Assembly (NCBI GenBank): GCA_026134085.1
Contig: JAOQIN010000002.1
Span: 4,859-68,858, forward strand
Length of the DNA: 64,000 bases
Reading direction: 5' to 3'
Origin: Candidatus Methanoxibalbensis ujae
GTDB taxonomy: Archaea; Halobacteriota; Syntropharchaeia; Alkanophagales; Methanospirareceae
Part shown: positions 13,666-35,292 of the stretch, one piece after another
How positions within the stretch are numbered: position 1 is the first letter of the stretch
Layout: each line of letters begins with the position of its first letter
Translations under genes and position numbers: made by a program
Notes under the pieces: generated by a model
Seen by the model: only the letters and a program-made list of their open reading frames with translations
Told to the model about the DNA's origin: nothing
Database searches by the model: none

Positions 13666-13899
13666 CTTTCAATCATCATAATCCCATCATAATCATAATC
13701 CTTATTTCTAATGATTCTCAGGCGTTTTACAGCACGCACATCAGCTGCACACAAAATACAGCGCATAATGCATTGTTAATGCATTGTGTTATTGAAGTGC
13801 TATAATGCTATAATGATACATGCTATAATGATACTTCACGAAACATCATCTTTTTATTATAAAAGAAACTTTGCTGAACCTGAGGTGACTGAGGTGATA

Positions 13900-14871
13900 A
13901 TGAGAAGCGCAGCATGTGTTTGTGTGGCAGTGATTGTTATGTCTGTGGTGTTCACATTCTGCGCAGCTGCGAACAACAATTGCCAATTATGCACAGTAGA
14001 TAATGGCGCCAATGGCGCCATGATTGGAGGTGCCGGAGCAGGTGCCGTGGCTGCCGGAGCATCGTCTGTGGAGTGGGGTATATGTGGTCCGATTGATCTC
14101 GTCATTGTCCTTGACAATACAGGAAGCATGGCAGACGCGATAGACAACATAAAGGCAGAAATGCCGGATATAATCGCAACCGCATATAATGCGTCAGGCG
14201 GCGATCTCAGGTTGGGATACATCACATTCAATGACAGCGTGTATGTGCGCAGCAACCTCACGACGAACATAAGTGCGGTTATGCACGCAATAAACACAAC
14301 TTATGCATCCGGCGGTGCCTACGCTCCTGAGGCATCTGACGAGGCGAAGAACACATCCATTAACAATCTGCCTGAGGGCATGAGACCCGATGCCACCGGA
14401 TATATGGGATATCAGTATGGAAATTTCACCACACCATACCGTCCAAACGCGACGAAGATAGTTGTGCTGATCACTGATGCTCCTCCAGGCGGATTTAATG
14501 ATACAGAAGATACGGAGGATGTAACTGCAATGCACACACATGCACTTACAGCGAGGAGCAAGGGAATTCTGGTGTGTGATGTCTTCGTTCCAACATACGG
14601 CGATTACGCAGGACAGCTCGCTATACTCAGGGATGATGCGGAGACAACTGGCGGCGCGTTCACCGTCGTGGCTTCAGATGGCAGCGGCACGGGAGCGGCA
14701 ATAAAGGAAATCATAACGAGATGCGGCAGAGCTAAGGGACCTGCAGCAGTTCCTATAATGTCATCCATCGGGATATTCGCAGTTGCTGCGATGCTTCTCA
14801 CAGTCTCAATCATATCTATCGTCAGGAACAACGGAGGCAGTGGTGGTATGCTGCGAAAACGAAAACCGTGA
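13900..14871 (+). CDS. secreted von Willebrand factor A (vWA) domain protein with C-terminal TM anchor
   Basis: Start chosen at the ATG at 13900, after a GAGGTGA. It has a signal peptide, a DLVIVLDNTGSM MIDAS motif, and a C-terminal hydrophobic helix followed by basic residues. Confidence 0.7.
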   Translation: MRSAACVCVAVIVMSVVFTFCAAANNNCQLCTVDNGANGAMIGGAGAGAVAAGASSVEWGICGPIDLVIVLDNTGSMADAIDNIKAEMPDIIATAYNASGGDLRLGYITFNDSVYVRSNLTTNISAVMHAINTTYASGGAYAPEASDEAKNTSINNLPEGMRPDATGYMGYQYGNFTTPYRPNATKIVVLITDAPPGGFNDTEDTEDVTAMHTHALTARSKGILVCDVFVPTYGDYAGQLAILRDDAETTGGAFTVVASDGSGTGAAIKEIITRCGRAKGPAAVPIMSSIGIFAVAAMLLTVSIISIVRNNGGSGGMLRKRKP

Positions 14872-15139
14872 CAGTAATTTCATCTTTGTTTTTTTTATTT
14901 CTTACTTATTTTTTGAATTGATCTCCCGCGGGATATCTCGCACGGGAGCTCAGATGTGCTCGTGAAAGCTCGATTAAAAGAATTGTTTCTGAGTATCTCC
15001 ATTGAATGGAGAGGTTCAAGGTAATTGCAAATCAGGAAACCGACAAAATCAATATCCTTTGCAGAAAGTTGGAAGTTGGATTGAGAATTGGAAATAAGTT
15101 TAAAGTGTTATGCACCTAACTATAGATCGCTGGGAAGGC

Positions 15140-15160
15140 GCTGTTGAAATGCCCAGCCCG
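15140..15160 (+). repeat. R0: half-site (right-arm box only) of the island repeat family
   Basis: GCTGTTGAAATGCCCAGCCC matches the (A)ACGTTRAGTGAAATGCCC right box of R1-R8. No left arm or inner stem is visible upstream. Confidence 0.5.
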
Positions 15161-15227
15161 CAGAATTAAGAATATGTTGCTGCTGATTCCTACATTTTCA
15201 AAGGTAGAGCAGGGTGGGTGAGAATAT

Positions 15228-15424
15228 TTATATAATATCGTCGTATTCTTCACTGCTCGCTATGCGAGCCCGCTCGCTATGCGAGCCCGATGCGAGCCCG
15301 GGTGGGGTCCGCCGAAGCCCTTCTGAGCCCGTGCCCGGAAGGCTTAAAGCCGGGTGGATGAAACGGGAACCACCCTGAAGGATGCCAAAGTGAGGGGAGG
15401 AGGTCACAGATAAGGAGGAATATC
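15228..15424 (+). promoter_or_regulatory. TATA-like box plus a ~160-nt GC-rich structured leader upstream of the first island gene
   Basis: TTTATATAA at 15228-15236. It is followed by tandem hairpins (GCTCGC-TAT-GCGAGC, twice), duplicated CCGGGTGG segments competing for one CCACCC, and an AAGGAGGA SD before the ATG at 15425. Confidence 0.3.
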
Positions 15425-15919
15425 ATGCATAAGAAAAGTATTGATCACCTGATTGGTCACATAGCATATATTGCTTTATATGTGGTATTGATAATATCCA
15501 CCGTTTTCCTTTACAATTCTGCCGATTTAGCAAAATTACTTTATGCAGGATGGATAATCCTGGTATTTGGAATCGTCTTTTTGTTGTGGTCAAGCGGATC
15601 ACGGAAGAAAGGGCGTGAAGAGGGTATTGTTGAAAGTGGAATGTATGCTTTTGTTCGCCATCCTGAGTTCCTCGGTCATATCCTGATAATTTTTGCGCTG
15701 GTTATTATTTCACAGCACTGGATCAGCCTGATTGTTGGCGCAGTCTTAATTGTTCTGCTGTGTCTTGCCATGATAGAAGAAGAAAAGAGAAATATAGAAA
15801 AGTTTGGCGATGCATACGGGGATTATATGAAAAGAGTTCCGAGAATAAATTTAATAGCAGGAATTGTTAAGCATAGCAAAAGAGAAAACGAAGATAATGA
15901 TAAAGATAAAATAAAATGA
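15425..15919 (+). CDS. isoprenylcysteine carboxyl methyltransferase (ICMT/PEMT) family membrane protein
   Basis: Multi-TM protein with a FVRHPEFLGHIL motif (family pattern RHPxYxG). Confidence 0.7.
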   Translation: MHKKSIDHLIGHIAYIALYVVLIISTVFLYNSADLAKLLYAGWIILVFGIVFLLWSSGSRKKGREEGIVESGMYAFVRHPEFLGHILIIFALVIISQHWISLIVGAVLIVLLCLAMIEEEKRNIEKFGDAYGDYMKRVPRINLIAGIVKHSKRENEDNDKDKIK

Positions 15920-15920
15920 G

Positions 15921-16045
15921 CGGACACTCTGCGGTGCTTTGACTCAGTCCTTCGGGTCACTTAACAGAGGGTATGCGGTTCGCTCCGCTCACCCAAATTT
16001 GCCCTATCGGGTGTCTTCGCATACCCGCCAAACGTTATACACAAT
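15921..16045 (+). repeat. R1: attC-like structured island repeat
   Basis: Left TCACTTAAC box, perfect 9-bp inner stem GGGTATGCG (15969-77) / CGCATACCC (16018-26), CCCAAATTTGCC loop motif, right AAACGTTATAC box. Confidence 0.75.
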
Positions 16046-16066
16046 CGGCTTTGTGAGGTGAGAAAA

Positions 16067-16214
16067 ATGGCTCAGCCCGTTATAAATTATGCACCTGAAA
16101 CTTGTGCATTTTGTGAAGGAAGTGGGGGCTGTAAATATAATTTAGGATACTATTGAAAGATGCCCTGCTTGTGGCGGAACAGGTTGGGCACATGCATTAA
16201 GACATGAAGAATAA
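16067..16214 (+). pseudogene. mini zinc-finger gene (two CxxCxGxG motifs) interrupted by a frameshift
   Basis: MAQPVINYAPETCAFCEGSGGCKYNLGYY stops at 16156. The next frame continues IERCPACGGTGWAHALRHEE to 16214. Joined, this gives a ~48-aa DnaJ-type Zn-finger-like peptide. Confidence 0.4.
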
Positions 16215-16326
16215 CTGCCGACTGCGTATAACAGCGGACATCGGCTGCGGTGCTTCGCACCTACGCCAAAATTCGGCAGAGCCGAACTTCGTATGTCCGC
16301 AAAACGTTGAGTGAAATGCCCAAGCC
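16215..16326 (+). repeat. R2: attC-like structured island repeat
   Basis: GTATAAC left box, inner stem GCGGACAT (16234-41) / ATGTCCGC (16293-300), CGCCAAAATTCGGC loop, right AAAACGTTGAGTGAAATGCCC box. Confidence 0.75.
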
Positions 16327-16361
16327 CTTTCATAAAAAAATCGCAATAGGAGGTGATAAAT

Positions 16362-16697
16362 ATGGCATTTAAAGCACTGTTCCTCGCCCATGCTCCTGAT
16401 GCAGAGGCAGAGAAGCATAGATGTGTTATTGAAACGCCCAAGTACTATAAGCTCCTTGTAGTAGTGGTAAAAAATCGGGAGCAGGCAATTGAAGTATGCA
16501 AAAAGGTTGTCAAAGAGGAGGGCATTCAGTCAATCCTTCTCTGTCCGGGATTTACACATAGAGATATTGCGGAGATATCAGAAGCGGTTGGTGAGAATGT
16601 CGGAGTTTTCGTGGCCAGAGGAGATGGTCCGAGTAACAGGATTTCAATGGAAGTGATGAGAAGAGAGGGATGGTTCTCAGAAAAAGGGAGAGAATAA
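16362..16697 (+). CDS. hypothetical small cytoplasmic protein (cassette cargo)
   Basis: ATG at 16362 after a GGAGGTG. 111 aa with an alpha/beta-like sequence. No motif was recognised. Confidence 0.5.
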   Translation: MAFKALFLAHAPDAEAEKHRCVIETPKYYKLLVVVVKNREQAIEVCKKVVKEEGIQSILLCPGFTHRDIAEISEAVGENVGVFVARGDGPSNRISMEVMRREGWFSEKGRE

Positions 16698-16740
16698 AAT
16701 TCCCTGCTCTCTTGTTTACTTTCAAGATAGGGAATGAAAG

Positions 16741-16850
16741 AGGCTTGGGCACTCTGCGGTGTTCGCAACCTTGTCCCTCGGGTCACTCTTGGGCGTAATC
16801 GGGCTCCGCTCCTTAAGCGAAGAAGGTTCGTAGATGAAAGTGATAGATGA
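16741..16850 (+). repeat. R3: degenerate attC-like island repeat
   Basis: Carries the TCTGCGGTG-TTCGCAACC-TTGTCCCTCGGGTCAC hairpin module and a GGTTCGTAGATGAAAGTGA right end. TAGATGAAAGTGA is duplicated and the inner stem is eroded. Confidence 0.6.
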
Positions 16851-16862
16851 AAGTGATAAGTC

Positions 16863-17237
16863 ATGAAAAACAAAAGTTCTGATGGAGGAGACAGGATGCA
16901 AACGTTATTGATAGTATCAGTGGCTTTTGCATTGTTTATTGTGTGTCCAAGAATGGCGGGAATGACCAATGTTATAACCAATGCCACGCAAACAAATATA
17001 ATTCATGTGGCAATTATAGGGACGATAATATCGCTTCCATTGATCATAGCAATGGTTTTGATCTTCAAGCAATATGGCTTATTTGCTGCGCTTGGCTTCT
17101 GTGTAATAACTGATTTGGGTGCTGCGTTTGTAATGAGGCAAATCAGCTTTAAAGCGGGTTTAGAAACTTTCATAATTGCTTTATTTTTAATTATTGGCGT
17201 CAAAGTTGCGTCAATAATTTCAAGCTGGTTATCATGA
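16863..17237 (+). CDS. small integral membrane protein (3-4 TM), function unknown
   Basis: 124-aa hydrophobic ORF filling the unit between R3 and R4. Confidence 0.5.
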   Translation: MKNKSSDGGDRMQTLLIVSVAFALFIVCPRMAGMTNVITNATQTNIIHVAIIGTIISLPLIIAMVLIFKQYGLFAALGFCVITDLGAAFVMRQISFKAGLETFIIALFLIIGVKVASIISSWLS

Positions 17238-17250
17238 AGATGCAGAGATC

Positions 17251-17400
17251 GAAAATCCACCGCTCCGCTCGATTTCCGTTCGCTCACGCTTCGGGACTAT
17301 CGCTCACGCCTGACGGGAGGATATGTGGCTTCACCTTCGGCTACGCCCAAATTTCGCAAAGCAAACTTCACATATTCTCGGAATGTTAAGTGAAATTGAG
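17251..17400 (+). repeat. R4: attC-like structured island repeat
   Basis: CGCTCCGCTC motif, inner stem GAGGATATGTG (17317-27) / CACATATTCTC (17369-79, 10/11), ACGCCCAAATTTCGC loop, right GGAATGTTAAGTGAAATTGAG box. Confidence 0.75.
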
Positions 17401-17467
17401 AACTTCGTGCGTAAAAATGATAAAGTATAAAAAATGAAAGTGTATCTGAAAAAAGGAGGTAAAAGAT

Positions 17468-18109
17468 ATGGTGGTGATAGGAGAGAAATTTCCGGAAATA
17501 GAGGTAAACACAACCCATGGAAGAATGAAGCTGCCGGAACAGTTCAGTGGAAAGTGGTTTGTGTTGTTCAGCCATCCTGCGGACTTCACACCGGTGTGCA
17601 CCACAGAGTTCTATGCGATGCAGAAACGCCTTGAAAAGTTCAAAGAACTCGGCGTTGAGGTTATAGGGCTCAGCGTTGATCAGGTGTTCAGCCATCTCAA
17701 GTGGATGGAGTGGATAAAGGAGAATCTGGGTGCCGAAATAGAGTTTCCGGTTATAGCGGACGACAGAGGATCCGTTGCAGAGGCTCTGGGGATGATACCC
17801 CATGGTGCGACTATAACTGCAAGAGCAGTGTTCATGGTGGACCCCAGGGGAATCATAAGGGCTATAGTCTACTATCCGGCAGAGGTCGGAAGGGACTGGG
17901 ATGAGATACTGAGAGCCCTGAAAGCACTGCAGACCAGCGATGCAAACGGTGTGGCACTGCCGCACAAGTGGCCTGAAAATGAGCTCATAGGCGACAGGGT
18001 AATAGTTCCCCCCGCGGACACAACAGACGCCATAAAGCAGAGAGAAAAGGCCAAAGCTGAGGGTGAAATAGAATGCTACGACTGGTGGTTCTGCCACAAA
18101 AAACTTTAA
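17468..18109 (+). CDS. peroxiredoxin (Prx6/1-Cys-like, archaeal thermophile type)
   Basis: [19 protein letters not shown] peroxidatic-Cys motif. The 213 aa sequence is very similar in pattern to Thermococcales/Archaeoglobus Prx. Confidence 0.9.
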
Positions 18110-18289
18110 CTCTTTTTTAATCTTTTCCGGGAAATTCTCCACAGAGCATGCCGGTGATGAACTGCGACATGCTGAGATGCTTGCGGGGAGGACAATACAA
18201 TGACACACCAATACTCAAACCGGAATATGACAGATAGTTGAGGTTCTGCATCCTGATGCAGGACAACTCGTCTGTTGTGATCAGCCGAT

Positions 18290-18543
18290 GGAATTGCTTG
18301 CAGAAAAAATTGAAGATGAAGGAATGGAAAAGTTCCAGTAGTTGAAAAAAACAGAAACAGGCGCAAGGATCAAAGTTGGTTCAATTCCACTGGAAGATAA
18401 TCATAACATGAATGGATAGAAGTAATTGCTGATGGTGTAGTTTATAGAGTCTAAAACTTGGAGATAAACCTGAGGCTGAATTTGAAATTGGAGCAGAAAA
18501 TATTAAGGCAGGAGAATACTGCAATACCCATCTGTGGAAATCA
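18290..18543 (+). pseudogene. decayed superoxide reductase (neelaredoxin-like) gene
   Basis: SOR-like fragments appear in order across three frames: GKVPVVE, IKVGSIPLEDNH, HEWIEVI and EYCNTHLWKS. Compare EKHVPVIE, VGKEIPHPNTTEHH, HHIRYIEL and SYCNIHGLWE. Stops and frameshifts lie between them. Confidence 0.45.
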
Positions 18544-18544
18544 C

Positions 18545-18690
18545 GGAGCGCCCTTCGTCCACGACTCTTCGGTTGCTCTTCAGTTGCTTCGCAACCTTGC
18601 CTTTCGGGTCATATAACAGCGGATAAAATGCTTCGCCCAAATTGCCCTCGGCAGCTTCTTTTATCCGCAAACGTTAAGTGAAATGCCCGC
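18545..18690 (+). repeat. R5: attC-like structured island repeat (best preserved)
   Basis: Double mini-hairpin module, ATATAAC box, perfect 10-bp inner stem GCGGATAAAA (18619-28) / TTTTATCCGC (18659-68), CGCCCAAATTGCCC loop, right CAAACGTTAAGTGAAATGCCC box. Confidence 0.8.
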
Positions 18691-18752
18691 CGTCTCTTTG
18701 AAAAAGAAAACATTTAAATCTGGAAAGAATTTAAAGAAAGGAAGTGATAAAA

Positions 18753-20927
18753 ATGAGGGGAAAGGCTTCCAAGCCAGGGAAAAGATGGATAACCGATTAC
18801 TGGCCGAACAGGCTAAATTTAAAAATTTTGAGGCAAAAATGTCCGAGTTCCAATCCCTATGGGCCTTACTACGACTATTTGAAAGAGGTTCAAGAGCTTG
18901 ATGTTGATTCTGTTATAAAAGATTTAAAGGAGCTTATGAGAAAATCGCAGGACTGGTGGCCTGCCGACTTTGGGCATTATGGTCCTCTTTTCATAAGACT
19001 TGCCTGGCACAGCGCTGGCAGCTACAGGATTTTTGATGGAAGAGGGGGGGCGAGGGATGGAAGTATACGCTTTCCTCCCAGGATCAACTGGCCCGATAAC
19101 ATCGGCCTTGACAGAGCTATAAGGCTTCTTTGGCCGATAAAGAAGAAGTATGGAAGGAAGCTCTCATGGGCAGATCTGATAATTCTTGCCGGAACGGTTG
19201 CGCTGGAAGACATGGGCGTGAGGATTATCGGTTTCTCTCTGGGAAGGGAGGACATATATGAGCCAGATGAGAGCCCGGACTGGGGTCCAGAGGAGGAAAT
19301 GCTTACAGCCAAGGAGCGTTTTTCTGAGGAGGGAAAGCTTAGAGAGCCTTATTCCGCCACAGAGATGGGGCTCATCTATGTTAACCCCGCAGGACCTGGA
19401 GGAGTTCCCGACCCAAGGGCATCGGCTCGGGAGATAAGGGCTGTTTTCGGTAGTATGGGGATGAACGACGAGGATACCGTGGCTTTAATTGCTGGAGGGC
19501 ATTCCTTTGGGAAGTGTCACGGAGCAGCCCCGGAAAAATATCTTGGCCCCGATCCGACCTCTTCACCGTTGGAGTCTCAGGGGCTGGGCTGGAAGTTTGA
19601 ATACAAGACAGGAAAGGGGCCCGACACCTTTACTTCTGGCTTTGAACTTGCCTGGTCTCCCACCCCCACAAAGTTCGGAATGGGTTATCTCAAAATGCTC
19701 TTTGATTACGATTATGAGATAGAAACCAGCCCCGCAGGAAAACCCCAGTGGGTTGCCAAAGATGCACCGGAAATCATACCAGATGCCCACGATCCAGAGA
19801 AAAAGCACAAACCCAGAATGCTTACCGCTGATTTAGCTTTAAAGTATGATGAGAAATATGCTGAGATAGCCGGGAGATTCTTGGAGAGCCCGGAAGAATT
19901 TGAAAAGGCTTTTGCAAGGGCATGGTTCAAACTTACCCACAGAGATATGGGGCCCAAAGGGTGGCACATGGGTCATTATGTTCCAAAGGAAGACTTCATC
20001 TGGCTTGATCCACTGCCGGAAAGAGATTACGATCTTATTGACGATAGCGATATTGAAGAATTGAAAAAGAGGATCCTGGCTTCAGGATTGAGTGTTTCCC
20101 AGCTGGTATATACAGCATGGTCTTCTGCTGCAAGTTACAGGCATTCCGACAGAAGAGGAGGGGCAAACGGAGCCAGAATAAGACTTTATCCGATGAATGA
20201 ATGGGAGGTCAACCATCCGGAAGATTTGAAGAAAATAATCAGGGTTTACGAAAAAATCCAGAGGGAGTTCAAAGAAGAGCAGGAAAGAAAAGGGAGCAGA
20301 AAAAGGGCATCTATAGCTGATCTCATTGTTCTCGGAGGTTGCGCTGCAATAGAAAAAGCCGCCAGTGATGCTGGTATAAACGTAAAGGTTCCATTCGCTC
20401 CCGGAAGGGTGGATGCGTCGCAGGAGCAGGTTGAGGTTGAATTCCACAAAAAAATAGAGCCGTTTGCTGACGGATTCAGAAACTACTTCAGATATCCGGA
20501 AACTATTAACGAGGAGGACATTTACACCACTCCCGAGTATTTCCTCGTTGATAAAGCACAGTTATTACAGCTTGCTGTGCCTGAAATGGTGGTTCTCCTT
20601 GGCGGGCTGAGGGCACTTGGAGCGGTTTACAGTTATGAAAGATACGGCGTTCTTACAGATAAGCCTGAAACACTTACCAACGATTTCTTTGTAAACCTGC
20701 TTGATACAGAATGGAGGCAGGCTGATGATTATCGTTATATCTTTGAGGGCTATGACAGAAAAACTGGAGAGCTAAGATGGAAAGCAACACGAGTTGACCT
20801 GATTTTCGGGCATCATGATGAGCTGAGGGCCGTGGCAGAGGTTTATGCATCCGATGATGCAAAAGAGAAATTCGTTAAGGATTTCGTAGCAGCATGGGAC
20901 AGGGTTATGAATCTGGACAGGATTTGA
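18753..20927 (+). CDS. katG: catalase-peroxidase
   Basis: [11 protein letters not shown] and other KatG hallmark blocks, with a two-lobed ~725 aa architecture. ATG at 18753 after a GGAAGTGA. Confidence 0.95.
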
Positions 20928-20958
20928 TTATGGAGGGAGCAAAATGATGCAAATTTTT

Positions 20959-21088
20959 CGGCGACGGCGGACATTCTTTGGTGCTTCGCACCTTGCCCTT
21001 CGGGTCACAGAGGGTATACGGTTCTCTCACCCCAATGTTCGGCTCCACCTGGCACTTCGCATACTCTGCATTAGGCGAAACGGCGGGT
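20959..21088 (+). repeat. R6: attC-like island repeat (TTAAC box deleted)
   Basis: GGTGCTTCGCACC and GCCCTTCGGGT hairpins, inner stem GGGTATACG/CGCATAC, right end GCATTAGGCGAAAC. Confidence 0.7.
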
Positions 21089-21091
21089 AAA

Positions 21092-23049
21092 ATGGTAAAG
21101 TTGAGAGAATTTCAAGAAAATGCAAAAGATAACCTTGTAAAAGGAAACTCCACTGTTGTTATAGCTCCAACTGGATCAGGAAAAACTCTTGCAGCTATTA
21201 TGCCTTTTAAGGATTTCAGTAGCACAAAATTGAGTAGAGTTATATATGCTCTTCCAATAAGAGCACTTGCAAAAGGTGTCCAAGAGGAATTCAAGAGTTT
21301 TAATATAAAATGTTCATCATGGTGACGAGCCAGAGAGCAAATGGTTCACGGAAAGAGCAATAATTACCACCGTGGATCAATATTTCACGGCGTTTGCAGG
21401 AGCGCCACTCTCTTGGAGTTCTGCAACGGGTCATGCAGCAGCTGGAGCTGCTTTAGCGAGTTACACGGTTTTTGATGAAATACATCTGCTAAATCCCGAA
21501 AACGGACTACAGCTGTTGTTTGCCGTTCTGAAATTACGAAACAGATGGAACCTACCCACAACAGTTATGACTGCCACACTACCCAATTCTGTGATAAATT
21601 CTCTCGAAATTAAATGTGGACTGGTAAAAATTGAGGCATCAGAAAAAGAGGAGATAGAGACTGCTGGAGAGACGTCAGTTTAAAGTTGCATGATGCGGAA
21701 CTGAACATTGATGAATTGGTAACGTTTGTCAAATGGCGTTGGAAAAACTATGGAAAAGTTATCGTTTTTGTTAATACTGTGGAGAGAGCAATAAGTCTCT
21801 ATACAAAGCTAAAAGAGGATAGTGGATTAAGAGATAAAATTTTGCTTGCGCATTCGAGATTTTCCAAAAAGGACAGAAAAAGAAAGGAAGAAGAAATTCA
21901 TTTGAAGTTTGGAAGAAATTCGGATTTTGAAGGCATACTTATCACCACTCAAGTAGCTGAAGCTGGACTTAACATATCGGCGCCATTGGTAATAACCGAA
22001 CTTGCACCGATGGATTCACTCATACAGCGTGCAGGAAGGTGTGCAAGATTTAGAGAGATTAATAAAGTTAAGGGCGAAGTTATAGTTGTGAAGCCTAAAG
22101 TTGAAAATGGTAGGTGGTACGCTCCGTATTTCGATTACATCCGCCTGAGGAAAGGTGGGAGTGGAACTAATAAGAATGACGCATTTATCAAAAATAAAGA
22201 ACGGATTACACTTTCCGAATTAACGTGGGTGGTTCTTCTTGAGAAAGCAAAAACTGATATAACTTTAAATTGGAATACAGAAAAAGAGCTTCTTAATCTC
22301 TCTTTGGACTATGCATATTCTGCATTTATAAACGGCTCAGATATAATCTACTTCAAGGATCAGATTAAGGACGAGGAAATAGGAGAGATAGTTGAACAAT
22401 ACAAAGACGAATTAAGAGGTGGGTAAAAGTGCCATTAACTATAAGTGAAGCTATTGGCATATTTGAACGGGCATTCCGTGTAAGAGACCCGAATGAGATC
22501 GAGCGAGTGCTCAGAGAAAATCTAAATGTGCAAGTTGCAGTCATAGATTCAAAAGAGACTGCGGAGAACAGGATTAATGAAGGTTATTACCCTCTTACTG
22601 TTAGAGTTCCCTACTGGATTTTTGTATCAAAAGTAAAAGAAAAAGAGTTAAATGTGTATTCTCTGGAGCAGGAGAATATCATCTCAGAGGAAAGCAAAAA
22701 ATGGAAATTAGAGGAAATATATAATGAGATCCTGCCAAACAGAACATATTTTATTTTAAAAAATAAAGCAGGTTATCACCCACATTTGGGTCTGACTTTT
22801 GAGGGAGATGGTGAGGTTACAGGTTTTGAAAAAATAGGAGAAGGTGAAAAAGCTGAGAAGTTTGTAGCGGGAAGAGAACAAACATGGGAAAAGCATGCGG
22901 TGGGCACTTTAGGTAGAGCTAATAGGATATTAAAAATTTACAGGCCGTTTCTAACGGATTGGGCTAAGAATGTATTTTCCGCTCAAAATCTAAATTTGTT
23001 GATTCTGAAGAGGGATCAGGTACTGTTGGAGATAGAAAATGCAGAGTAA
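21092..23049 (+). pseudogene. Cas3-type SF2 (DExH) helicase without HD domain, broken into 3-4 ORF pieces
   Basis: Motif I APTGSGKT, Ia YALPIRA, II DEIH, III TATLP, V TTQVAEAGLNIS and VI QRAGRCAR. The reading frame shifts near 21305, near 21660 and at 22426/22429. Confidence 0.6.
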
Positions 23050-23195
23050 GAGAATAAGCAAATCCCATTCCTTCAGCAGAGTTGGACTCTATTCCCCCAT
23101 TCAGAAATAATAACAGCTTTTTAATGATCAGACTTCTATCGTTACTAAGCTGATTCACCGGAATACTCTCCTACCCATTGCAACTCAACACAAAA

Positions 23196-23774
23196 TTAAA
23201 AATTTACATCGGTCACGGTTACAGGAAACCCCGTCTTTCTTAACATATCTAATACCTCAGCGTATGCTGCATCCTCCGTAATATCTTTATAGCCTCCAGG
23301 AAGAACGATAAAGCGATAGCTTTTCCTCTCTGTATCAACTGTTACCTCGATGATATTGGCTTTTGCAATAATCATGTGCACCTCTCTCCTTTTAATCCCT
23401 AAACGAATTATATTTTTGTAGGATACAACCGTACAGTTTCTGGAAAACTTTCTCCCAAGCATTTCGGCCAACCTATCAAGATTTATGCTTGAATCTATAA
23501 TGGAATATATGTACTTTCTAAACTCCTCAGAGCTTTTGGGTAATTGCTTAAATAACTCTTTCAACTTTTTTCGCGATATTGGAAATACCTCCTCCAAACC
23601 TTTCAGCCCACAAACATCCTTCAAAATTAAAATGCCAGTATCGGTCACCAGAAGGAGATTTAGGTACTGTATTTCAAAAATTCCAAAACTCTTAACAGCC
23701 GAAAGAGGAATGACTCCCAAAATCTCAACTCGCATCTTCTTAACTCCTCCCGGCTTGGAATCCATCACCACCAA
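23196..23774 (-). CDS. hypothetical cytoplasmic protein (last unit of the minus sub-array)
   Basis: 192-aa ORF in AT-rich DNA with no recognisable motif. The start could be the internal MRVEILG. Confidence 0.45.
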   Translation of the reverse strand: MVVMDSKPGGVKKMRVEILGVIPLSAVKSFGIFEIQYLNLLLVTDTGILILKDVCGLKGLEEVFPISRKKLKELFKQLPKSSEEFRKYIYSIIDSSINLDRLAEMLGRKFSRNCTVVSYKNIIRLGIKRREVHMIIAKANIIEVTVDTERKSYRFIVLPGGYKDITEDAAYAEVLDMLRKTGFPVTVTDVNF

Positions 23775-23931
23775 GCATCTTTATCAGAAATTTTCTCCTT
23801 TCACAATCTATGCGATTTCAGATGCAGTGTAACGTACTGTCAGGTCGTTTATTTGTTTCGTGGTTTTCATCCCTTTTTCATATCGTGAATTTCCAGTATA
23901 AATATCTTTTCAAATCGCAAAGCGACAGGGC

Positions 23932-24070
23932 ATTTCACAGCGTTCTGGGGATATGAGAGGTTTGCGGAGCGAAGCGGAGCAAATTTGGGCGTAGCAAATC
24001 GAAGCCACATATCCGCCTGTTGTCCGAGTGCGACAGGCACCAAATTGCGTAGCAATTTGAGTTGCAAGCC
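23932..24070 (-). repeat. R7: attC-like structured island repeat (minus orientation)
   Basis: Read on the minus strand: GCAATTT-[GGTGCCTGTCGCACT]-CGGACAAC-AG-GCGGATATGTGG...ACGCCCAAATTTGC...CATATCCCC-AGAACGCTGTGAAATGCCC. Confidence 0.75.
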
Positions 24071-24071
24071 A

Positions 24072-24671
24072 TTAAAAAATATTGGTTTTAATGAGATTTG
24101 ACTCATACCAAACCTCATCTTTGTTCTCATGCTCCCATCTTAACAAAAGACCAGTTTGCCTGTCATACCATCCCGTCCACCTGTTATTTCCAAATTCGGC
24201 TTTTAAGACGTAAGCTTCACGTTCGTAGCCGCTGACTTTAACAGAGCTAATATTCACGATTCTATATTCCTCCTCATCTCCTTTACATTCGTAAAGTTTT
24301 ATCGTATCGCCTATTGAAAGATCGGTTGGTATCCAGAGATGGAAATAGTAGCTTTTAAATGGTGGTCTTATAAAAAGATTCGTGATATTTTGTCCATCTG
24401 TAATCGCTTTCAGTAGCTTTCGAGATTTGATGTCTACATAAAGCGTATCATTTCGGAGCCAGTTGTGTTTAATCACAACCTTATTATATGAGACAGAAAG
24501 GATTTTATACTTGTCCACATAACGATCTTGAACAAAAAAGACGTTGTAGACGTCGTATTTTGCATAGGTCCCGGGTTTCAGCCAAGAGATCTCTTGATGA
24601 GGAAGTATGTTAAATACAACAACTGCTGATAAGATTATTATTCCAATAGTTATTAAATTTTTCCAGTTCAT
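24072..24671 (-). CDS. hypothetical protein with N-terminal TM/signal anchor
   Basis: 199 aa with an MNWKNLITIGIIILSAVVVF anchor followed by a beta-rich extracytoplasmic-looking domain. Confidence 0.5.
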   Translation of the reverse strand: MNWKNLITIGIIILSAVVVFNILPHQEISWLKPGTYAKYDVYNVFFVQDRYVDKYKILSVSYNKVVIKHNWLRNDTLYVDIKSRKLLKAITDGQNITNLFIRPPFKSYYFHLWIPTDLSIGDTIKLYECKGDEEEYRIVNISSVKVSGYEREAYVLKAEFGNNRWTGWYDRQTGLLLRWEHENKDEVWYESNLIKTNIF

Positions 24672-24717
24672 TTTGTTCCCTCAAATTTGGCTTTTTTAAT
24701 ACCTTTCTTACGAGAAT

Positions 24718-24840
24718 GTTTGCAATTTCGGACAACTTTACGGAGATATGTGAAGTTTCGCTTTGCGAGATTTGGATAAGTGTAAGCGAGCTACATATCC
24801 TCCTGTTGTCCGAGTGCGTAAGCACCGAAGCAAACAGAAA
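24718..24840 (-). repeat. R8: attC-like structured island repeat (minus orientation)
   Basis: Read on the minus strand: GGTGCTTACGCACT-CGGACAAC-AG-GAGGATATGT...ACATATCTCC-GTAAAGTTGTCCGAAATTGC. The inner stem is nearly identical to that of R4. Confidence 0.75.
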
Positions 24841-25526
24841 GTTACCCAAAGTCCCATTTTATTTGCCTCTTTAAGCCTTTCTATTTCCTTTCTTATATCT
24901 TCAATCACTTCTGGATTATAAATTTCTTTTTTATTGTCTTTTTTGATTGAAAATACAATAAATACTTTCCCACCAAAATTTTCCTCAAATTTCTTATGTG
25001 TCCTGCCAAGCCATTCCTTCCATCTGTAAATCTCCGGAGTTTGTTCATAGGTTATAGGTTTTATTTGCAAACCAATATATTTATTTCCAATCTGAATATA
25101 AAAGTCAACATTGTAAACCCTATCCCATTCATCAGGAGCAGGTTTTACCTCAACACCCAGATCTCTCTGTAATTTCCCATATATTGTTTTTATTTCCGTT
25201 AGATAGCCATCATAGGTTCTGTTAATTATGAGGTTGTGAATATATTGGATACAATCTTCTTCCGTCACTTCCTCAATTTCTGCCTGAATAACTTCTGTAA
25301 TTTTTATATATAATTTTCTACCCAAATCTTCAATATACTCTTTGGGAGTCAAGGAAATACCTTTGCTTTTGAGAAAATCACCAAGCTTTTTGTAATAAAA
25401 GTCTTCCCAATCTTCAATTGTTTTAGGGCTACATTCTCGTATCCATTGAGATACTGGTCCAACACTGTCTTTCTTATTCAATCCCCATCTGTTCGTTGCC
25501 ATGTTTAATATCCATTCTTTTGCCAT
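24738..25526 (-). CDS. putative type II restriction endonuclease (possibly MjaI-like; tentative)
   Basis: Sits 4 bp downstream of the methyltransferase. It has a PD-(D/E)xK-like NVDFYIQIGNKYIGLQIKP. About the last 33 codons read through repeat R8. Confidence 0.5.
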   Translation of the reverse strand: MAKEWILNMATNRWGLNKKDSVGPVSQWIRECSPKTIEDWEDFYYKKLGDFLKSKGISLTPKEYIEDLGRKLYIKITEVIQAEIEEVTEEDCIQYIHNLIINRTYDGYLTEIKTIYGKLQRDLGVEVKPAPDEWDRVYNVDFYIQIGNKYIGLQIKPITYEQTPEIYRWKEWLGRTHKKFEENFGGKVFIVFSIKKDNKKEIYNPEVIEDIRKEIERLKEANKMGLWVTFCLLRCLRTRTTGGYVARLHLSKSRKAKLHISP

Positions 25527-25530
25527 TATT

Positions 25531-26769
25531 TCACCTTTTTTCTAATTCAATAAATTTTGCTTTGTATTTATAATCCTTTATTGTATCTGCCTCAGCCATT
25601 CCAGATTTTATTAAATAGGCATTCACAAAAATTTTATTTTTTAAATAAACATAGGCGCTCACTGTATTTTCATCCGAGACTGATCCATTATCAAACTTAA
25701 GATAAACCTCTTTTTTCAGAATACGATTATGCAAATATTCCGATGCTTTTTCTTTATCAATTATTTTAACGCCCAAAAACTTGACAAGTAGACCAGTATC
25801 CAATTTAATAGTTTGCTCATCTATAATATCAATAACCTTGTAAAGTCTATCCTTTTTAAAATTAAATTTTTTAGGATCTATTTTGGGTTTGGCATCTTTA
25901 ATCCTTGGAACATAGCTAATTTTATCAACTTTTATTGGTGTTTGACGTTTTATTATCTGAATGTTTTCACTGAATTGCGACAAGCTTTGTTTTAGTCCAA
26001 GTTTTTCTTTTATTATTTCTAAAAACTTTTCGTTTATTTCATAACCTATTGCATTTCTTCGCAGATTTAAAGCCTCCTTTACTGTTGTCCCGCTTCCAAG
26101 GAAGGGATCAAGAACTGTATCATCTACGAATGTATACATTTTTATCAGTCTTTTTGGTAGTTCTTCGGGGAACATAGCTTCATGTTCTATCTGCTTTGCT
26201 CCACCAAAATACCAGTGTCCGTAGAAGTATTCTTTCCACTCTTCCTTGGTCAATTTTGAGTTCTCTTTGATTTCCTTTGGGACTTTTTCACTTTTTCCCG
26301 GTTTTTTGAAGATAAGTATAAATTCATAGTCAATTTCAATCATTCCATTTGGAGGATAGGGATATGAGCCCATTACATTTGCTCCTCCAGTTGTGTTCAT
26401 CGTGGTTTTCTTCTGCCAGATTATTGAACCCATATAATCAAAACCAATGTCCTCGCATTGAGCTATAAACTCAGCATGCAGTGGTATAACTTTGTATCTG
26501 CCGTAAATTATAGAACGGGCGAATTGATCTCCTATGTTTATACATAACCTCCGCCCAGGTTTAAGGACACGGTAACATTCCTTCCAGACTCTGTATAAAT
26601 CTTTCAAATATTCATGTAAGCTTTGTCCATAACCAATCTGCCCAGGAACTCCGTAATCTTTAATGTGCCAGTAAGGGGGAGAGGTGACAACCAAGTCTAT
26701 ACTGTTGTTTTTGATTTCTGTCATTTTTCGGCTATCACCGATTATTATTTTCGCCCAGTTGTTCATCAT
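25531..26769 (-). CDS. beta-class DNA methyltransferase (SPPY: N4-cytosine or N6-adenine) with C-terminal SNase/OB-like extension
   Basis: Motif IV TSPPYW precedes motif I DPFLGSGTT, which is the beta-class order. The C-terminal ~140 aa follows the thermonuclease fold pattern. Confidence 0.85.
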   Translation of the reverse strand: MMNNWAKIIIGDSRKMTEIKNNSIDLVVTSPPYWHIKDYGVPGQIGYGQSLHEYLKDLYRVWKECYRVLKPGRRLCINIGDQFARSIIYGRYKVIPLHAEFIAQCEDIGFDYMGSIIWQKKTTMNTTGGANVMGSYPYPPNGMIEIDYEFILIFKKPGKSEKVPKEIKENSKLTKEEWKEYFYGHWYFGGAKQIEHEAMFPEELPKRLIKMYTFVDDTVLDPFLGSGTTVKEALNLRRNAIGYEINEKFLEIIKEKLGLKQSLSQFSENIQIIKRQTPIKVDKISYVPRIKDAKPKIDPKKFNFKKDRLYKVIDIIDEQTIKLDTGLLVKFLGVKIIDKEKASEYLHNRILKKEVYLKFDNGSVSDENTVSAYVYLKNKIFVNAYLIKSGMAEADTIKDYKYKAKFIELEKR

Positions 26770-26808
26770 TTCACTGTATTAATTTAATATAGATAACATT
26801 TTCCATAA

Positions 26809-26875
26809 GGGGCTTCGGGCGATTTCAGACAACGAAAGTTTTGCGCAGGGCGAGCATAGGAGAGCCGCATATGAA
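26809..26875 (-). repeat. R9: partial (right-arm) island repeat at the outer edge of the minus sub-array
   Basis: Read on the minus strand: GCGCAAAACTTTCGTTGTCTGAAATCGCCCGAAGCCCC. This matches the right box of R8/R2 but has no complete left arm. Confidence 0.55.
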
Positions 26876-26939
26876 ATGATTTTCTTTGAAAAAATTTTGA
26901 GAGGAAATATAAAAAGAAGAAATATAAAATTAATAAAAA

Positions 26940-26993
26940 AAAAGAAAAAATAATAATATAAAAACAAACAAAAAAGCACCTGTAGGCAGGTGC
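26940..26993 (-). terminator. hairpin plus oligo-T tract downstream of hef
   Basis: GCACCTG-TAGG-CAGGTGC hairpin at 26976-26993, followed on the minus strand by TTTTTTGTTTGTTTTT. Confidence 0.4.
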
Positions 26994-27174
26994 AACTGAC
27001 TTTCCCATGGTGGAAAGAGTATAGTATGTGTTGTGGGTGTTGTTGCGGGGATAGTAATACCTCTTACCCGGAAAAATGCAGATGATAGCGAGATGTTGGT
27101 TTCAACATTTTGTCGCTTTCAATTTAATCAAAATGTCGGACAGTTTCACCCTCACAGGCTGATGCAGTCAATCA

Positions 27175-29685
27175 TCATGAATCACTCGTCTGATATTCGG
27201 AGGAGAGTATAAGCCTTATCCGCTCAGCCTTGGCCTTTCCAATGCCTTCAACGCGCAGCAGTTCTTCAGCTGATGCGTTGAATATGCGCTCAACGGATTT
27301 GAAATGTTTCAGCAGTTTTCTTGCTGTCTGTATGCCGACATTGGGCAGTGATGTCACGATGAACTCCTGCTGTTCCCTCAATGAAGCGTCTGATGATGGC
27401 TTTTTCCGCAGTGCTCTCACTGCTTTCCTCCGTTCTTCCTGCTCACGCCTCGCGAGCATGTATATGAGAGATGCTGTGTCTATCTCATCTCTTGTCTGAA
27501 GAATGGGCACAGAAAAGTCGACAGCGATGGCTGCGAGCACGCCACGGATGACATTTGGAGACACATCACGCATCCCATAAAGCGGTTCATCACCTTCCAG
27601 CACGAGCAACGCCTTCTCATATGTTGAGCGCAATTGCTGAACCTGACGAAGCAAATCTCTTCTGTCACTCAGAAGTGAGTCAAAAAAATCACGCACAGTC
27701 TTTCTCTCCACGCACAGCCTTTCCGATATGACATAATCGCCAACTTCCAGCTGCTCAAACCGCACATTCACACCTGCTCTCCGCAGAAAACCTGCGACTG
27801 AAGAACGGCTTTCTCTGTGATCAACAATAACAGTCAGGCGAAAAAAATCGCTCAGCCTCCTCTGTCCCGCCCGCTCCCTCTCCTTTTCCTGCTCCTGCTC
27901 CTGCTCATCTTTCCCGTCTTTCGCATTCCCGACATGCACATATTCGGCGTTGAGAGTTGCAGATGATGCGGCAGCAGATGATGTCGTGCTGTTATCAGCG
28001 GTGCCATGGGTGTTGCGCAATATGCGCCCGATTTCCTTCAGCTCGCTTATCATGCGACGCATCTCACGCTCCTTCCGCATGCTTCGCCAGTAATATGCCT
28101 CATCTTTCGTGCCTTTTGCTATGAGCACAACGACCCTTCCAAATCTCATTCTCCCCGTGCGACCTTTCCGCTGTATGCTGCGTATCGCGGATGGAATTGG
28201 CTCATAAAAAATTACGAGATCGGTTGACGGTATATCAAGACCCTCCTCGGCAACAGAAGTCGCGACAAGCGTGTTATAGACGCCTTTCTTGAAAAGCTCA
28301 ATAATCTCAACCTGCTCACGCTGCTTCAGGCCCTTCTCATCCCCCCTCGCAGACTGTCCGATGAATTTAACTGCTTTTATGCCCTCTTTCTCAAGATTAA
28401 GAGATTTAAATGCGTCCATTATCATATCAACAGTGTCCCTGAACTCGGCAAATATGATTATTCTTGTGTCAGGATTTCTTCTGATTTCATCTTTTACTAC
28501 ATTTATCAGCGTTTTAAGCTTGGGATGCTCTCCCTTATAGTTAAGGATTGTGACTATTGCGCTCACGAACTTCTCATCTTTGAACAGCCTTCTTGCAGCT
28601 TTGCTCCCTTTTTTTGATGACGCCTCATTGTTGAGCCGCTCAATGTATTTTCGGAGAGCAAAAACTCCTTCCGAGCCGAGGAGGTCTATCGCATGTCTTA
28701 TTTTCAGTGCTTCCGCCTGCAGTGAGAGCGCATGATAGAGGTCCTGATCCCCGGATGCCAATCTCTCCTTCAGATCCTCACCGAGCTCAAGCAGCTCCAT
28801 TTTTGTGCTGCCGCATCTGAAGCCAAGTTTCGCGAGCTCGTTCACGCGTTCTGCGAGGAGTTCCTCAAGGATGTGCTTCTGCTTTTTTATCTCAGATGGC
28901 ACCTCTATCTCTATCCATTCCACACGCTTCTCATGCACATAAGGCGCGACATCTGCATCATTTTCCGTCCTGCTCTCTATGACCTCAATTCCCAGCGCAT
29001 CACATATCTCAATTATACGCTCCTTTTCACTTCCGGGAGATGCTGTAAGACCGAGTATAATAGGTTTCTTGCCTCGCTTTGTCCTCTGTTCTCTGTATTT
29101 CTCAGCGATGAAAACATATGAATAGTTGCCAACCGCACGATGACATTCATCAAATATCAGCAGTGAGACATCTTCAAGACTGATTCTCGCAGCTAGAATG
29201 TCGTTCTCAATCACCTGCGGCGTTGATATCACGATCCTCCCATTCCTCCACAGATCAACACGCTTTTTCGCTGGAATGGCACCGGTCATAACATAGATAT
29301 GTTCTATCTTCAGAACATTTCGTAAGAAAGAAGCGTGCTGCTCAACAAGCGGTCTTGTCGGTGCAAGAAACAAAATTTTATCAAAACGATCACGAGCATG
29401 ATCACATCCTCCACCGCTTCTGCCATCTGTCTCATCACGCTGCCCAAGATGCTGCTGCAGCATCTCCTCAGATTCACAATTTTCAAGCAGTTCAAGTATG
29501 ACAAGTAGTGCAACAGTTGTCTTGCCAAGCCCGGTGGGCAGAACAACCATTGTTGACGATTTTTTCGCAACTTCAGCAATTGAAATCTGATACTCCCTCC
29601 TCTCAATAACGCCTTCTTTAAGCAGAGGATGCGAAATATATCGCGACCTTCGCACGCACATCACTCTTCCTTCTCCCGTTCTCAT
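27175..29685 (-). CDS. hef: Hef/XPF-type helicase-nuclease (DEAH helicase + ERCC4 nuclease + HhH2)
   Basis: PTGLGKT, DECH and QRKGRTGR helicase motifs, a VDHRE...GDY...ERK ERCC4 nuclease motif, and a C-terminal HhH pair. Confidence 0.85.
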   Translation of the reverse strand: MRTGEGRVMCVRRSRYISHPLLKEGVIERREYQISIAEVAKKSSTMVVLPTGLGKTTVALLVILELLENCESEEMLQQHLGQRDETDGRSGGGCDHARDRFDKILFLAPTRPLVEQHASFLRNVLKIEHIYVMTGAIPAKKRVDLWRNGRIVISTPQVIENDILAARISLEDVSLLIFDECHRAVGNYSYVFIAEKYREQRTKRGKKPIILGLTASPGSEKERIIEICDALGIEVIESRTENDADVAPYVHEKRVEWIEIEVPSEIKKQKHILEELLAERVNELAKLGFRCGSTKMELLELGEDLKERLASGDQDLYHALSLQAEALKIRHAIDLLGSEGVFALRKYIERLNNEASSKKGSKAARRLFKDEKFVSAIVTILNYKGEHPKLKTLINVVKDEIRRNPDTRIIIFAEFRDTVDMIMDAFKSLNLEKEGIKAVKFIGQSARGDEKGLKQREQVEIIELFKKGVYNTLVATSVAEEGLDIPSTDLVIFYEPIPSAIRSIQRKGRTGRMRFGRVVVLIAKGTKDEAYYWRSMRKEREMRRMISELKEIGRILRNTHGTADNSTTSSAAASSATLNAEYVHVGNAKDGKDEQEQEQEKERERAGQRRLSDFFRLTVIVDHRESRSSVAGFLRRAGVNVRFEQLEVGDYVISERLCVERKTVRDFFDSLLSDRRDLLRQVQQLRSTYEKALLVLEGDEPLYGMRDVSPNVIRGVLAAIAVDFSVPILQTRDEIDTASLIYMLARREQEERRKAVRALRKKPSSDASLREQQEFIVTSLPNVGIQTARKLLKHFKSVERIFNASAEELLRVEGIGKAKAERIRLILSSEYQTSDS

Positions 29686-35250: not shown

Positions 35251-35292
35251 TCCATCCTCTTTCTCTCTTCTTCTCTTATTTTCTTATTTTCT

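Follow-up and report, generated by a model that had tools for sequence, protein, structure and literature searches.

The 64,000-nucleotide stretch of contig JAOQIN010000002.1 of Candidatus Methanoxibalbensis ujae analysed here (the window) contains a 12.3-kb island in which genes alternate with structured repeats. What are these repeats, and how did they come to stand behind genes as different as a catalase-peroxidase (KatG) and a type II restriction-modification (R-M) pair? A first-pass annotation, made from the sequence alone, read them as attC-like sites separating integron-like gene cassettes, possibly of a distinct variant, and named as the alternative a family of RNA-level palindromes of the repetitive extragenic palindrome/bacterial interspersed mosaic element (REP/BIME) kind. 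The analysis reported here indicates that the island probably represents two convergent arrays of mobile cassettes of an integron-like site-specific recombination system. The cassette-array reading is supported by the co-orientation of neighbouring elements and of the open reading frames (ORFs) between them, by a covarying stem, by the shuffling of cassettes and by the different island content of a related strain.

Two arrays in one island

The island lies between a vWA-domain gene (13786-14871, +) and a gene for a Hef helicase-nuclease (27175-29685, -). Its guanine plus cytosine (GC) fraction is 0.31-0.39 at 23-27 kb, compared with 0.45-0.51 in the flanks, which bears out the earlier remark that the island is AT-richer than its surroundings. 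A + strand and a - strand gene set converge at ~23.1 kb. The + strand order is an ICMT/PEMT-like gene, a zinc-finger ORF, DUF6506, a 124-aa membrane protein, a 1-Cys peroxiredoxin, degenerate DNA, KatG and a Cas3-like helicase. Read from the Hef side, the - strand carries an N4/N6 methyltransferase with an MjaI-family endonuclease, a 199-aa protein and a 192-aa protein. The cargo thus comprises oxidative-stress genes (peroxiredoxin, KatG), a type II R-M pair, membrane proteins and unassigned genes. Every island ORF faces its downstream site, as had been described for both sub-arrays.

Alignment of the intergenic regions by hand and a covariance model both confirm the repeat family. The covariance model (R1 model), made from 37 copies in other sequences and 6 window copies, was run over the whole window with filters off. 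It gave six full-length matches of 53-83 bits and a weak match at R6; these window scores are partly circular, six of the copies being in the seed alignment, but copies in other contigs, independent of the window, reach equal scores. All copies fall at 15.1-26.9 kb, with no convincing match of the model in the remaining 52 kb of the window. Counting R6, five elements lie on the + strand and two on the - strand. The first-pass annotation had counted at least eight repeats; the family is real at the positions it gave, far above chance, with the count reduced to six intact copies, one degenerate copy (R6) and one truncated copy (R3). Each of its two half-sites, R0 and R9, is a right-hand one and stands at the head of an array, and the four stems that it quoted (R1, R2, R4, R5) are correct on reading of the sequence.

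Architecture and covariation of the element

The element has the layout (R)YYTAAC-A(G), a 12-bp stem arm, a variable loop that usually carries CGCCCAAATT, then ACTTC, the complementary stem arm and NNAAC-GTTAAGTGAAATGCCC, so that the right side of the site reads on as AAC^GTTAAGTGAAATGCCC (the caret marks the junction). Measured from the R''-like to the R'-like box, it spans 52-118 nt with a median of 83. The outer box (Y)TAAC pairs with GTTA, and between these boxes and the stem lies an asymmetric internal loop of 1-2 nt on one side and 4-5 nt on the other. The TAAC/GTTA pairs are formed in 97.6% of alignment cells, while complementarity over the full 7 nt of the boxes is limited to an ACTTAAC subset. 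Among 188 distinct elements, R' matches GTTRRRY in 142, 26 of them with the classical GTTAGGC, and R'' ends in AAC in 179 and in TAAC in 160. The outer boxes therefore follow the integron logic of R'' (RYYYAAC) and R' (GTTRRRY) that had been proposed for them.

A 16-pair structure was evaluated on a 43-sequence alignment. Of the cells in this alignment 95.7% pair; sliding the 3' partners by 1-3 columns lowers the figure to 22-44%. Cells in which both partners have changed number 118, against 40.8 +/- 5.3 in shuffled alignments, and none of 500 shuffles reaches 118. RNAalifold retains nine stem pairs, with compensatory changes in each. These data agree with the earlier view that pairing rather than sequence is conserved. 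In the same alignment the 12-bp stem runs without interruption (95.1% paired) and shows neither a conserved bulge nor a conserved extrahelical base. Over the 188 distinct elements the stem is 87% Watson-Crick, and the rest includes 110 A.C/C.A and 81 G.T/T.G cells. An RNA stem on the coding strand would be expected to tolerate G.U and to avoid A.C, so this mismatch pattern speaks for DNA. The same wobble counts were also considered as a guide to which strand folds, for which 110 against 81 is indecisive.

Spread of the family and shuffling of cassettes

An exact scan for AAACGTTRAGTGAAATGCC across one genome per species returned 11 loci, of which four were chance matches without a hairpin. The seven full elements occur in the isolate Thermodesulfatator autotrophicus, an Archaeoglobaceae metagenome-assembled genome (MAG), a Methanosarcinales MAG, an unclassified bacterium, a Dehalococcoidia genome, an Omnitrophota MAG and a WOR-3 MAG. 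Metagenome contigs with the scan motif added at least 120 loci, mostly hydrothermal. Using a profile search, 244 elements were collected in 131 loci plus the window (~641 kb). Of the adjacent pairs, 118 have both elements on one strand and a single pair has them on opposite strands, this pair being the window's own convergent junction. The median spacing is 1040 bp, and the longest ORF between two elements is co-oriented with them in 107 of 118 intervals, filling 83% of the interval. Recurrent cargo includes ICMT-like proteins, nucleotidyltransferase plus HEPN pairs, DUF6506 and retropepsin-like proteins; among the 1240 ORFs of the loci there is no recurrent transposase. In one metagenome contig (L027), a two-cassette unit of ~2.8 kb is tandemly duplicated (2159-2198/4995-5034; 3638-3727/6474-6553).

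To follow individual cassettes, cassette cores of the window were used as probes and their distinct contexts were counted. The DUF6506 core has 12 distinct upstream contexts in 16 loci and 4 distinct downstream contexts in 10, and the ICMT-like core has 12 in 16 upstream and 7 in 12 downstream. For the 192-aa core the counts are 4 in 4 upstream and 5 in 6 downstream; this probe was taken from the + strand of the window, opposite to the cassette, so the directions are swapped and the counts alone are meaningful. The 192-aa cassette is 88-89% identical in four other contigs and has a different context in each. Homology to the window cassettes starts and stops at elements. The homology ends of shared cassettes fall inside the conserved AACGTTAAGTGAAATGCCC, which leaves the exchange point at that resolution. 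A proposed cross-domain sharing of the DUF6506 cassette with Thermodesulfatator was withdrawn, as the locus concerned (L002) has a nucleotidyltransferase cassette there; what is common to both domains is the element family and its recombinase.

Two contigs allow comparison at closer range. One of them, L039, is 97% identical to and collinear with window positions 16160-21027, and by this identity probably comes from the same population. The other, L136 (GCA_053938205.1), encodes a Hef that is 99% identical and matches the window at ~95% of nucleotides from 39825 down to 25408, where it diverges. There the MjaI endonuclease gene is truncated; after it come GTTAGCAGAAATTCCGCACGCCGCC, which resembles a cassette 5' end, and a type I R-M unit (14353-18115). 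A closely related strain thus differs from the window in island content, although the break is not at a hairpin; a comparison of related genomes had been proposed in the first-pass annotation. By comparison, the nearest named homologues of the window Hef are only ~55% identical and come from Methanophagales/ANME-1 (anaerobic methanotrophic archaea) and other Halobacteriota MAGs, which places the host among the uncultured euryarchaea near these groups.

A candidate partner recombinase and an attI-like site

An IntI1 query (100% identical to plasmid copies) was run over all ORFs of the loci and found one full gene, of 379 aa in contig L095, together with fragments. Using the L095 protein in tblastn, pieces of the same family were identified in ten further loci, Thermodesulfatator included, so that 11 of the motif-selected loci carry genes or fragments of it. 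Three domains make up the recombinase: a conserved N-terminal one, a SAM-like one and a catalytic one. It passes the NCBIfam model NF040815 ('site-specific tyrosine recombinase/integron integrase') with 237.6 bits at a cutoff of 220, and stays under the cutoffs of the integron integrase model TIGR02249 (217 bits, cutoff 265) and of NF011946 (170 bits, cutoff 435). Its best relative by sequence in the PDB is VchIntIA/IntI4 (2a3v, 158.9 bits), followed by XerA (142.6) and XerD (98), and 2a3v is again the first Foldseek match of an AlphaFold2 model (predicted local distance difference test 82.6). The alignment to 2a3v runs in two blocks, in which IntI4 residues 184-240, the IntI-specific insertion, face 15 residues. 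As judged by this alignment, the array-linked recombinase is an enzyme without the 40-57-residue IntI insertion that carries the I2 helix. The catalytic residues R-K-H-R-H-Y are conserved in 45 homologues. Homologues number thousands, under the annotation pipeline (PGAP) name 'site-specific tyrosine recombinase/integron integrase'.

The extra N-terminal domain is a conserved small beta/alpha fold of ~70-90 residues. It occurs in ~600 representative proteins, frequently in tandem, and in isolation has no PDB match in Foldseek. Its assignment to HARP was considered and left as a weak lead (Pfam 22 bits, cutoff 25).

A reciprocal test was performed on five loci selected from the recombinase homologues by long contig only, with the presence of an array not a criterion. 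In four of the four loci with downstream DNA, co-oriented elements recognised by the R1 model stand right behind the first genes 3' of the recombinase, whose own gene lies upstream of the array in the same orientation as the cassettes. In Desulfurobacterium atlanticum (L132) a TaqI-type R-M system (11270-13413) is followed by an element (13487-13584), with an attI-like site at 11123-11214, and in Methanoperedenaceae (L134) two genes precede the element. In a Methanotrichaceae MAG (L135) an AlwI R-M system, a 304-aa gene and a Bpu10I R-M system are each followed by an element, as are an AccI R-M system, a PDDEXK gene and a NucS-like gene in an 81-kb bacterial contig (L146). An R-M system is nearest to the recombinase or array head in three of the four complete platforms (L135 11554-14190 and 15619-17823; L146 11120-13824), in the - array of the window and in the related strain L136. 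This placement suggests that defence genes were acquired most recently or most often. Two contigs with an Alkanophagales-type recombinase gene, L144 and L145 (ends at 11220 and 3676), stop ~100-160 nt past that gene and are uninformative on arrays; such ends would be no surprise if variable or repeated cassette arrays interrupt assembly.

Immediately 3' of the recombinase gene there is a conserved attI-like site. It combines two core-type palindromes, GTATATGCG-AACnnnGTT-CGCATATAC and GGATATCCG-AACAGTT-CGGATATG, with AAYGA^GTT after the second. In a longer reading, the first palindrome is followed by AAATTGGRAG, then by GATATCCG-AACAGTT-CGGATATG and AAYGA^GTTATACGC. A profile of this site matched in 24 loci, in which 39 hairpins follow the site, without exception on its strand, and 3 precede it. 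The partnership of recombinase and arrays rests on this genomic association.

The window itself has no match to the attI-like profile in its 64 kb, R0 and R9 included, and a six-frame search of the same 64 kb gave no recombinase signal, in line with the earlier statement that no integrase is visible in the island. The window arrays are for this reason like clusters of attC sites lacking integron-integrases (CALINs), and they are partly decayed, the half-sites being among the signs of this. Either they rely on a recombinase elsewhere in the genome or they are fossilising; R3 (truncated), R6 (degenerate) and the disrupted zinc-finger and Cas3-like genes favour the second possibility.

Alternative explanations

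Several observations weigh against reading the island as mobile cassette arrays. Recombination, the crossover point and the choice of strand are all inferred. The loci were picked through one conserved 19-mer, so that the array statistics cover that sub-family only. The L136 breakpoint lies inside a restriction-enzyme gene and not at a hairpin, which is no clean cassette swap, and several of the recombinase copies that adjoin arrays are truncated (L016, L025, L002). Folding of the repeats as single-stranded DNA (ssDNA), a check that the first-pass annotation had proposed, was of mixed outcome: R2 and R8 stand out, while most single copies fold no better than shuffles (z +0.9 to -4.9). Since single-sequence folds are weak, the evidence for structure is comparative and not thermodynamic. 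Finally, Ghaly et al. found attC clusters in Archaeoglobaceae and ANME-1 MAGs with standard tools (Ghaly et al., 2022; PMC9668308). That result favours an ordinary integron CALIN, in which the elements are bona fide attCs used by a canonical IntI and the I2-less recombinase is a bystander or Xer-type enzyme. The boxes match the attC consensus in the proportions given above, the element size is near the attC range, and canonical attCs such as that of blaVIM-2 likewise have short, unequal spacers. An ordinary CALIN is nevertheless unlikely, because ~577 kb of array-bearing loci contain no canonical IntI and their sole tyrosine recombinases are I2-less, because this I2-less family heads the array in every reciprocal test with an attI-like site of its own, and because the stem lacks conserved extrahelical bases. 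That the R1 model gives class 1 attCs no score says little. A canonical attC model from class 1 integrons was dropped, as four plasmid regions with five distinct attCs were too few.

Two further explanations need no cassette exchange. REP/BIME-like palindromes could stabilise, terminate or process transcripts and spread by selection for that role; the elements do stand directly 3' of co-oriented ORFs, their stem-loops are formed, and some could double as transcript ends. However, no T run follows the hairpin, the same element is found in bacteria and archaea, whose transcription termination differs, and A.C mismatches are no rarer than G.T, which is unexpected for an RNA stem. Moreover, the flanking boxes are conserved and the elements are tied to a recombinase and an attI-like site, while the same genes stand behind different neighbours with the breaks at elements. 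Together with the co-orientation of the elements, these findings disfavour the RNA-level alternative of the first-pass annotation, which we regard as very improbable. Non-autonomous transposable elements that favour intergenic sites, either miniature inverted-repeat transposable elements (MITEs) or palindrome-associated transposable elements of the IS200/IS605 type, would likewise be short, structured, multi-copy and present in many taxa. Against them stand the 118 to 1 co-orientation, the lack of a recurrent transposase among the locus ORFs, and a single hairpin per gene instead of paired ends, with no terminal inverted repeats or target duplications; in the window, moreover, no copy lies outside the island. 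This last explanation is the least probable of all and can be given hardly any weight.

Features of the window arrays

The features of the two arrays are collected in Table 1.

Table 1. Elements and cassettes of the two window arrays, in order of position (model, R1 covariance model)
Feature	Position	Strand	Evidence
R0, right-hand half-site GCTG^TTGAAATGCCCAGCCC	15133..15160	+	read from sequence; weak partial model match 15140-15155, 8.6 bits
ICMT/PEMT-like membrane methyltransferase cassette gene, 164 aa	15425..15919	+	Pfam DUF1295, PEMT, ICMT
R1, intact hairpin element	15959..16050	+	model 54.5 bits, E 2.8e-11
Small cassette, two CxxCxGxG zinc-finger motifs, interrupted by a stop codon	16069..16215	+	translation, sequence
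R2, intact hairpin element	16226..16322	+	model 82.8 bits; ssDNA fold z -2.5
DUF6506 protein cassette gene	16353..16697	+	Pfam DUF6506, E 6e-24
R3, truncated element	about 16745..16786	+	alignments; no model match
124-aa predicted membrane protein cassette gene	16863..17237	+	ORF list; no Pfam or PADLOC match
R4, intact hairpin element	17308..17401	+	model 66.7 bits
1-Cys peroxiredoxin cassette gene	17468..18109	+	Pfam AhpC-TSA, 1-cysPrx_C
R5, intact hairpin element	18611..18689	+	model 70.5 bits
Catalase-peroxidase (KatG) cassette gene	18744..20927	+	Pfam peroxidase, two stretches
R6, degenerate hairpin element, imperfect stem, right box lost	21005..21086	+	model 15.4 bits, E 0.11; nhmmer 18 bits
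Last + array unit: Cas3-like helicase pseudogene and 206-aa ORF of no assigned family	20978..23049	+	Pfam DEAD, Cas3-like_C_2; PADLOC Cas3 fragments
192-aa protein, last - array cassette	23196..23774	-	ORF list; no family assigned
R7, intact hairpin element	23927..24025	-	model 55.7 bits
199-aa protein cassette gene	24072..24671	-	ORF list; no Pfam or PADLOC match
R8, intact hairpin element, overlapping the 3' end of the restriction-enzyme ORF	24720..24811	-	model 53.1 bits; ssDNA fold z -4.9
Type II R-M pair, first - array cassette (methyltransferase 25531-26769, endonuclease 24738-25526)	24738..26769	-	Pfam N6_N4_Mtase, RE_MjaI; PADLOC MTase_II, REase_II
R9, right-hand half-site CAAAACTTTCG^TTGTCTGAAATCGCCCGAAGCC, - array head	about 26800..26870	-	sequence, alignment; no model match

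At the head of the + array, R0 is the junction of non-cassette DNA with the first cassette. Within this first cassette, 5' of the ICMT-like gene, GCTCGCTATGCGAGCCC, itself a small palindrome, is repeated in tandem (2.6 units) at 15255-15299 (+). R1 has a GC-rich upstream module from ~15921, the stem GGGTATGCG/CGCATACCC, and a right end that reads GTTATAC instead of GTTAAGT. This right end (16050-16065), GTTATACACAATCGG, resembles the attI-like right half GTTATACGCNATGC (L095 1900-1915; L134 11245-11260) and not the usual GTTAAGTGAAATGCC; the likeness suggests that the start of the zinc-finger cassette may once have adjoined an attI-like site. At R3 a GC-rich upstream module ending in GGGTCAC remains and the hairpin is gone, by which the DUF6506 cassette has become fused to the next one.

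Between the peroxiredoxin gene and R5, ~450 nt (18110-18560, +) are degenerate, with stops in all frames, and may be what is left of a former gene. One short segment of this stretch resembles a superoxide reductase C-terminus, with no match in Pfam, and contig L039 is without ~76 nt of it (window 18317-18393). The Cas3-like helicase is split over four ORFs, no intact element stands 3' of its unit, and no CRISPR array or further cas genes were found near this stand-alone helicase. Many cassettes (for example in L007, L017 and L052, and at window 18690-18745) open after GTTAAGTGAAATGCCCGCCGTCGCC with a GAAAGATTTAAAA-type sequence resembling an archaeal promoter (factor B recognition element/TATA), and cassettes may accordingly be predicted to carry their own promoters. 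In the interval from the - array head to the Hef stop codon, a very AT-rich low-complexity stretch (26890-26972) precedes a GC hairpin, GCACCTG-TAGG-CAGGTGC, at 26975-27005, and this region may be the Hef terminator. In the Rfam scan of the window, no curated family covers the repeat; the sole family matched is the archaeal RNase P RNA (34984-35252, -, 211 bits), which confirms an archaeal host.

Proposed mechanism and implications

In the mechanism that we propose for the cassette arrays, the site would fold on one unpaired strand as a hairpin at the 3' end of the cassette. Recombination of the attI-like site with a hairpin would insert circular cassettes, and recombination between two hairpins would excise them. 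The exchange would take place within AAC^GTT, at G^TT, as the junction data and the analogy with integrons suggest. The stem duplex (GGATATG/GGATAT or GTATGCG types) may mimic one arm of the attI palindromes, and the strand may be marked by the asymmetric internal loop rather than by extrahelical bases. The N-terminal domain of the recombinase may help to hold the folded substrate.

The element family and its recombinase occur in Aquificota, Thermodesulfobacteriota, Methanosarcinales-type, Archaeoglobaceae and ANME-related genomes. The hairpin family, the I2-less recombinase with its N-terminal domain and the double-palindrome attI-like site could together constitute an undescribed integron-like system shared by thermophilic and anaerobic archaea and bacteria, possibly a pre-I2 state or a parallel I2-free solution, that moves defence and stress genes across domains in hydrothermal habitats; we give this wider proposal an even chance of being right. 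The suggestion in the first-pass annotation of a possibly distinct variant gains substance from a recombinase that is related to IntI yet without its insertion, from a stem without extrahelical bases, and from a conserved loop motif and 3' extension. Two defining features of integrons that were tested, the IntI insertion and the extrahelical bases, are absent here, and the system is therefore filed as integron-like and not as a member of the canonical integrons. Literature searches turned up no description of this family, which is not proof that none exists.

In the account given by Escudero et al. (2020; PMC7790495), acquisition of the I2 helix is thought to have enabled integron integrases to recombine folded ssDNA attC sites. 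If the link between the I2-less recombinase and the arrays is functional, then either the capture of cassettes at hairpin sites needs no I2, or integron evolution has an intermediate stage that survives to this day. The system would also provide archaea and bacteria at hydrothermal sites with a concrete means of exchanging genes, and it would account for the presence of KatG, peroxiredoxin and an R-M pair as separate modules in an apparently anaerobic archaeon. Desulfurobacterium atlanticum, a cultured host of a one-cassette platform, makes the question testable.

Comparison with known systems

Like REP/BIME sequences, the elements are short structured repeats 3' of genes. Unlike them, they are co-oriented, bound mobile units shared between genomes, and are linked to a recombinase and a primary site; nor are they dispersed as REP/BIMEs or MITEs would be, all window copies lying in one 12-kb island of the 64 kb of genome examined. 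With XerA and XerCD the recombinase shares its core size and domain order (a SAM-like N domain plus a catalytic domain) as well as a pass under NF040815, and the attI-like palindromes resemble dif core sites, with 9-bp arms and a 7-9-bp centre. Xer enzymes are also able to use a folded hairpin, the ssDNA attP of the CTX phage. In contrast to the Xer/dif system, this recombinase is probably no housekeeping dimer resolver; it heads accessory cassette arrays and has an added N-terminal domain. The sites are long hairpins in co-oriented tandem arrays, unlike dif sites, which are single and 28 bp long, or the pdif sites of Acinetobacter plasmids, which alternate in orientation.

The closest resemblance is to integrons and CALINs. 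Archaeal integrons were reported in 2022, mostly as CALINs (Ghaly et al., 2022; PMC9668308), among them an Archaeoglobaceae MAG with a cluster of two attCs and an ANME-1 MAG in which seven attCs accompany one IntI, and the archaeal IntIs of that study are said to possess the additional domain of IntI. The present system differs from integrons in its recombinase, which is without the insertion (I2 helix) that defines IntI and contacts extrahelical bases, has an extra N-terminal domain, and is encoded in the same orientation as the cassettes. Its sites differ from attC in having no conserved extrahelical bases, the asymmetry lying in the internal loop of 1-2 against 4-5 nt, and in the conserved loop motif CGCCCAAATT. 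In addition, ~13 nt past R' (AAGTGAAATGCCC), which form the 5' end of the next cassette, are conserved, and the attI-like site consists of two core-type palindromes. What the system has in common with integrons is a tyrosine recombinase gene with an adjoining primary site and co-oriented, mostly single-gene cassettes, each ending in an imperfect hairpin-forming palindrome with a variable loop length and with boxes that resemble R'' (..YAAC) and R' (GTTRRRY). Its cassettes are likewise shuffled between hosts, with the system spanning both domains, and its cargo is rich in toxin-antitoxin and defence genes. Integrase-less arrays occur as well, and the clustering of the elements agrees with the description of CALINs as at least two co-oriented sites, less than 4 kb apart, that separate mostly single ORFs.

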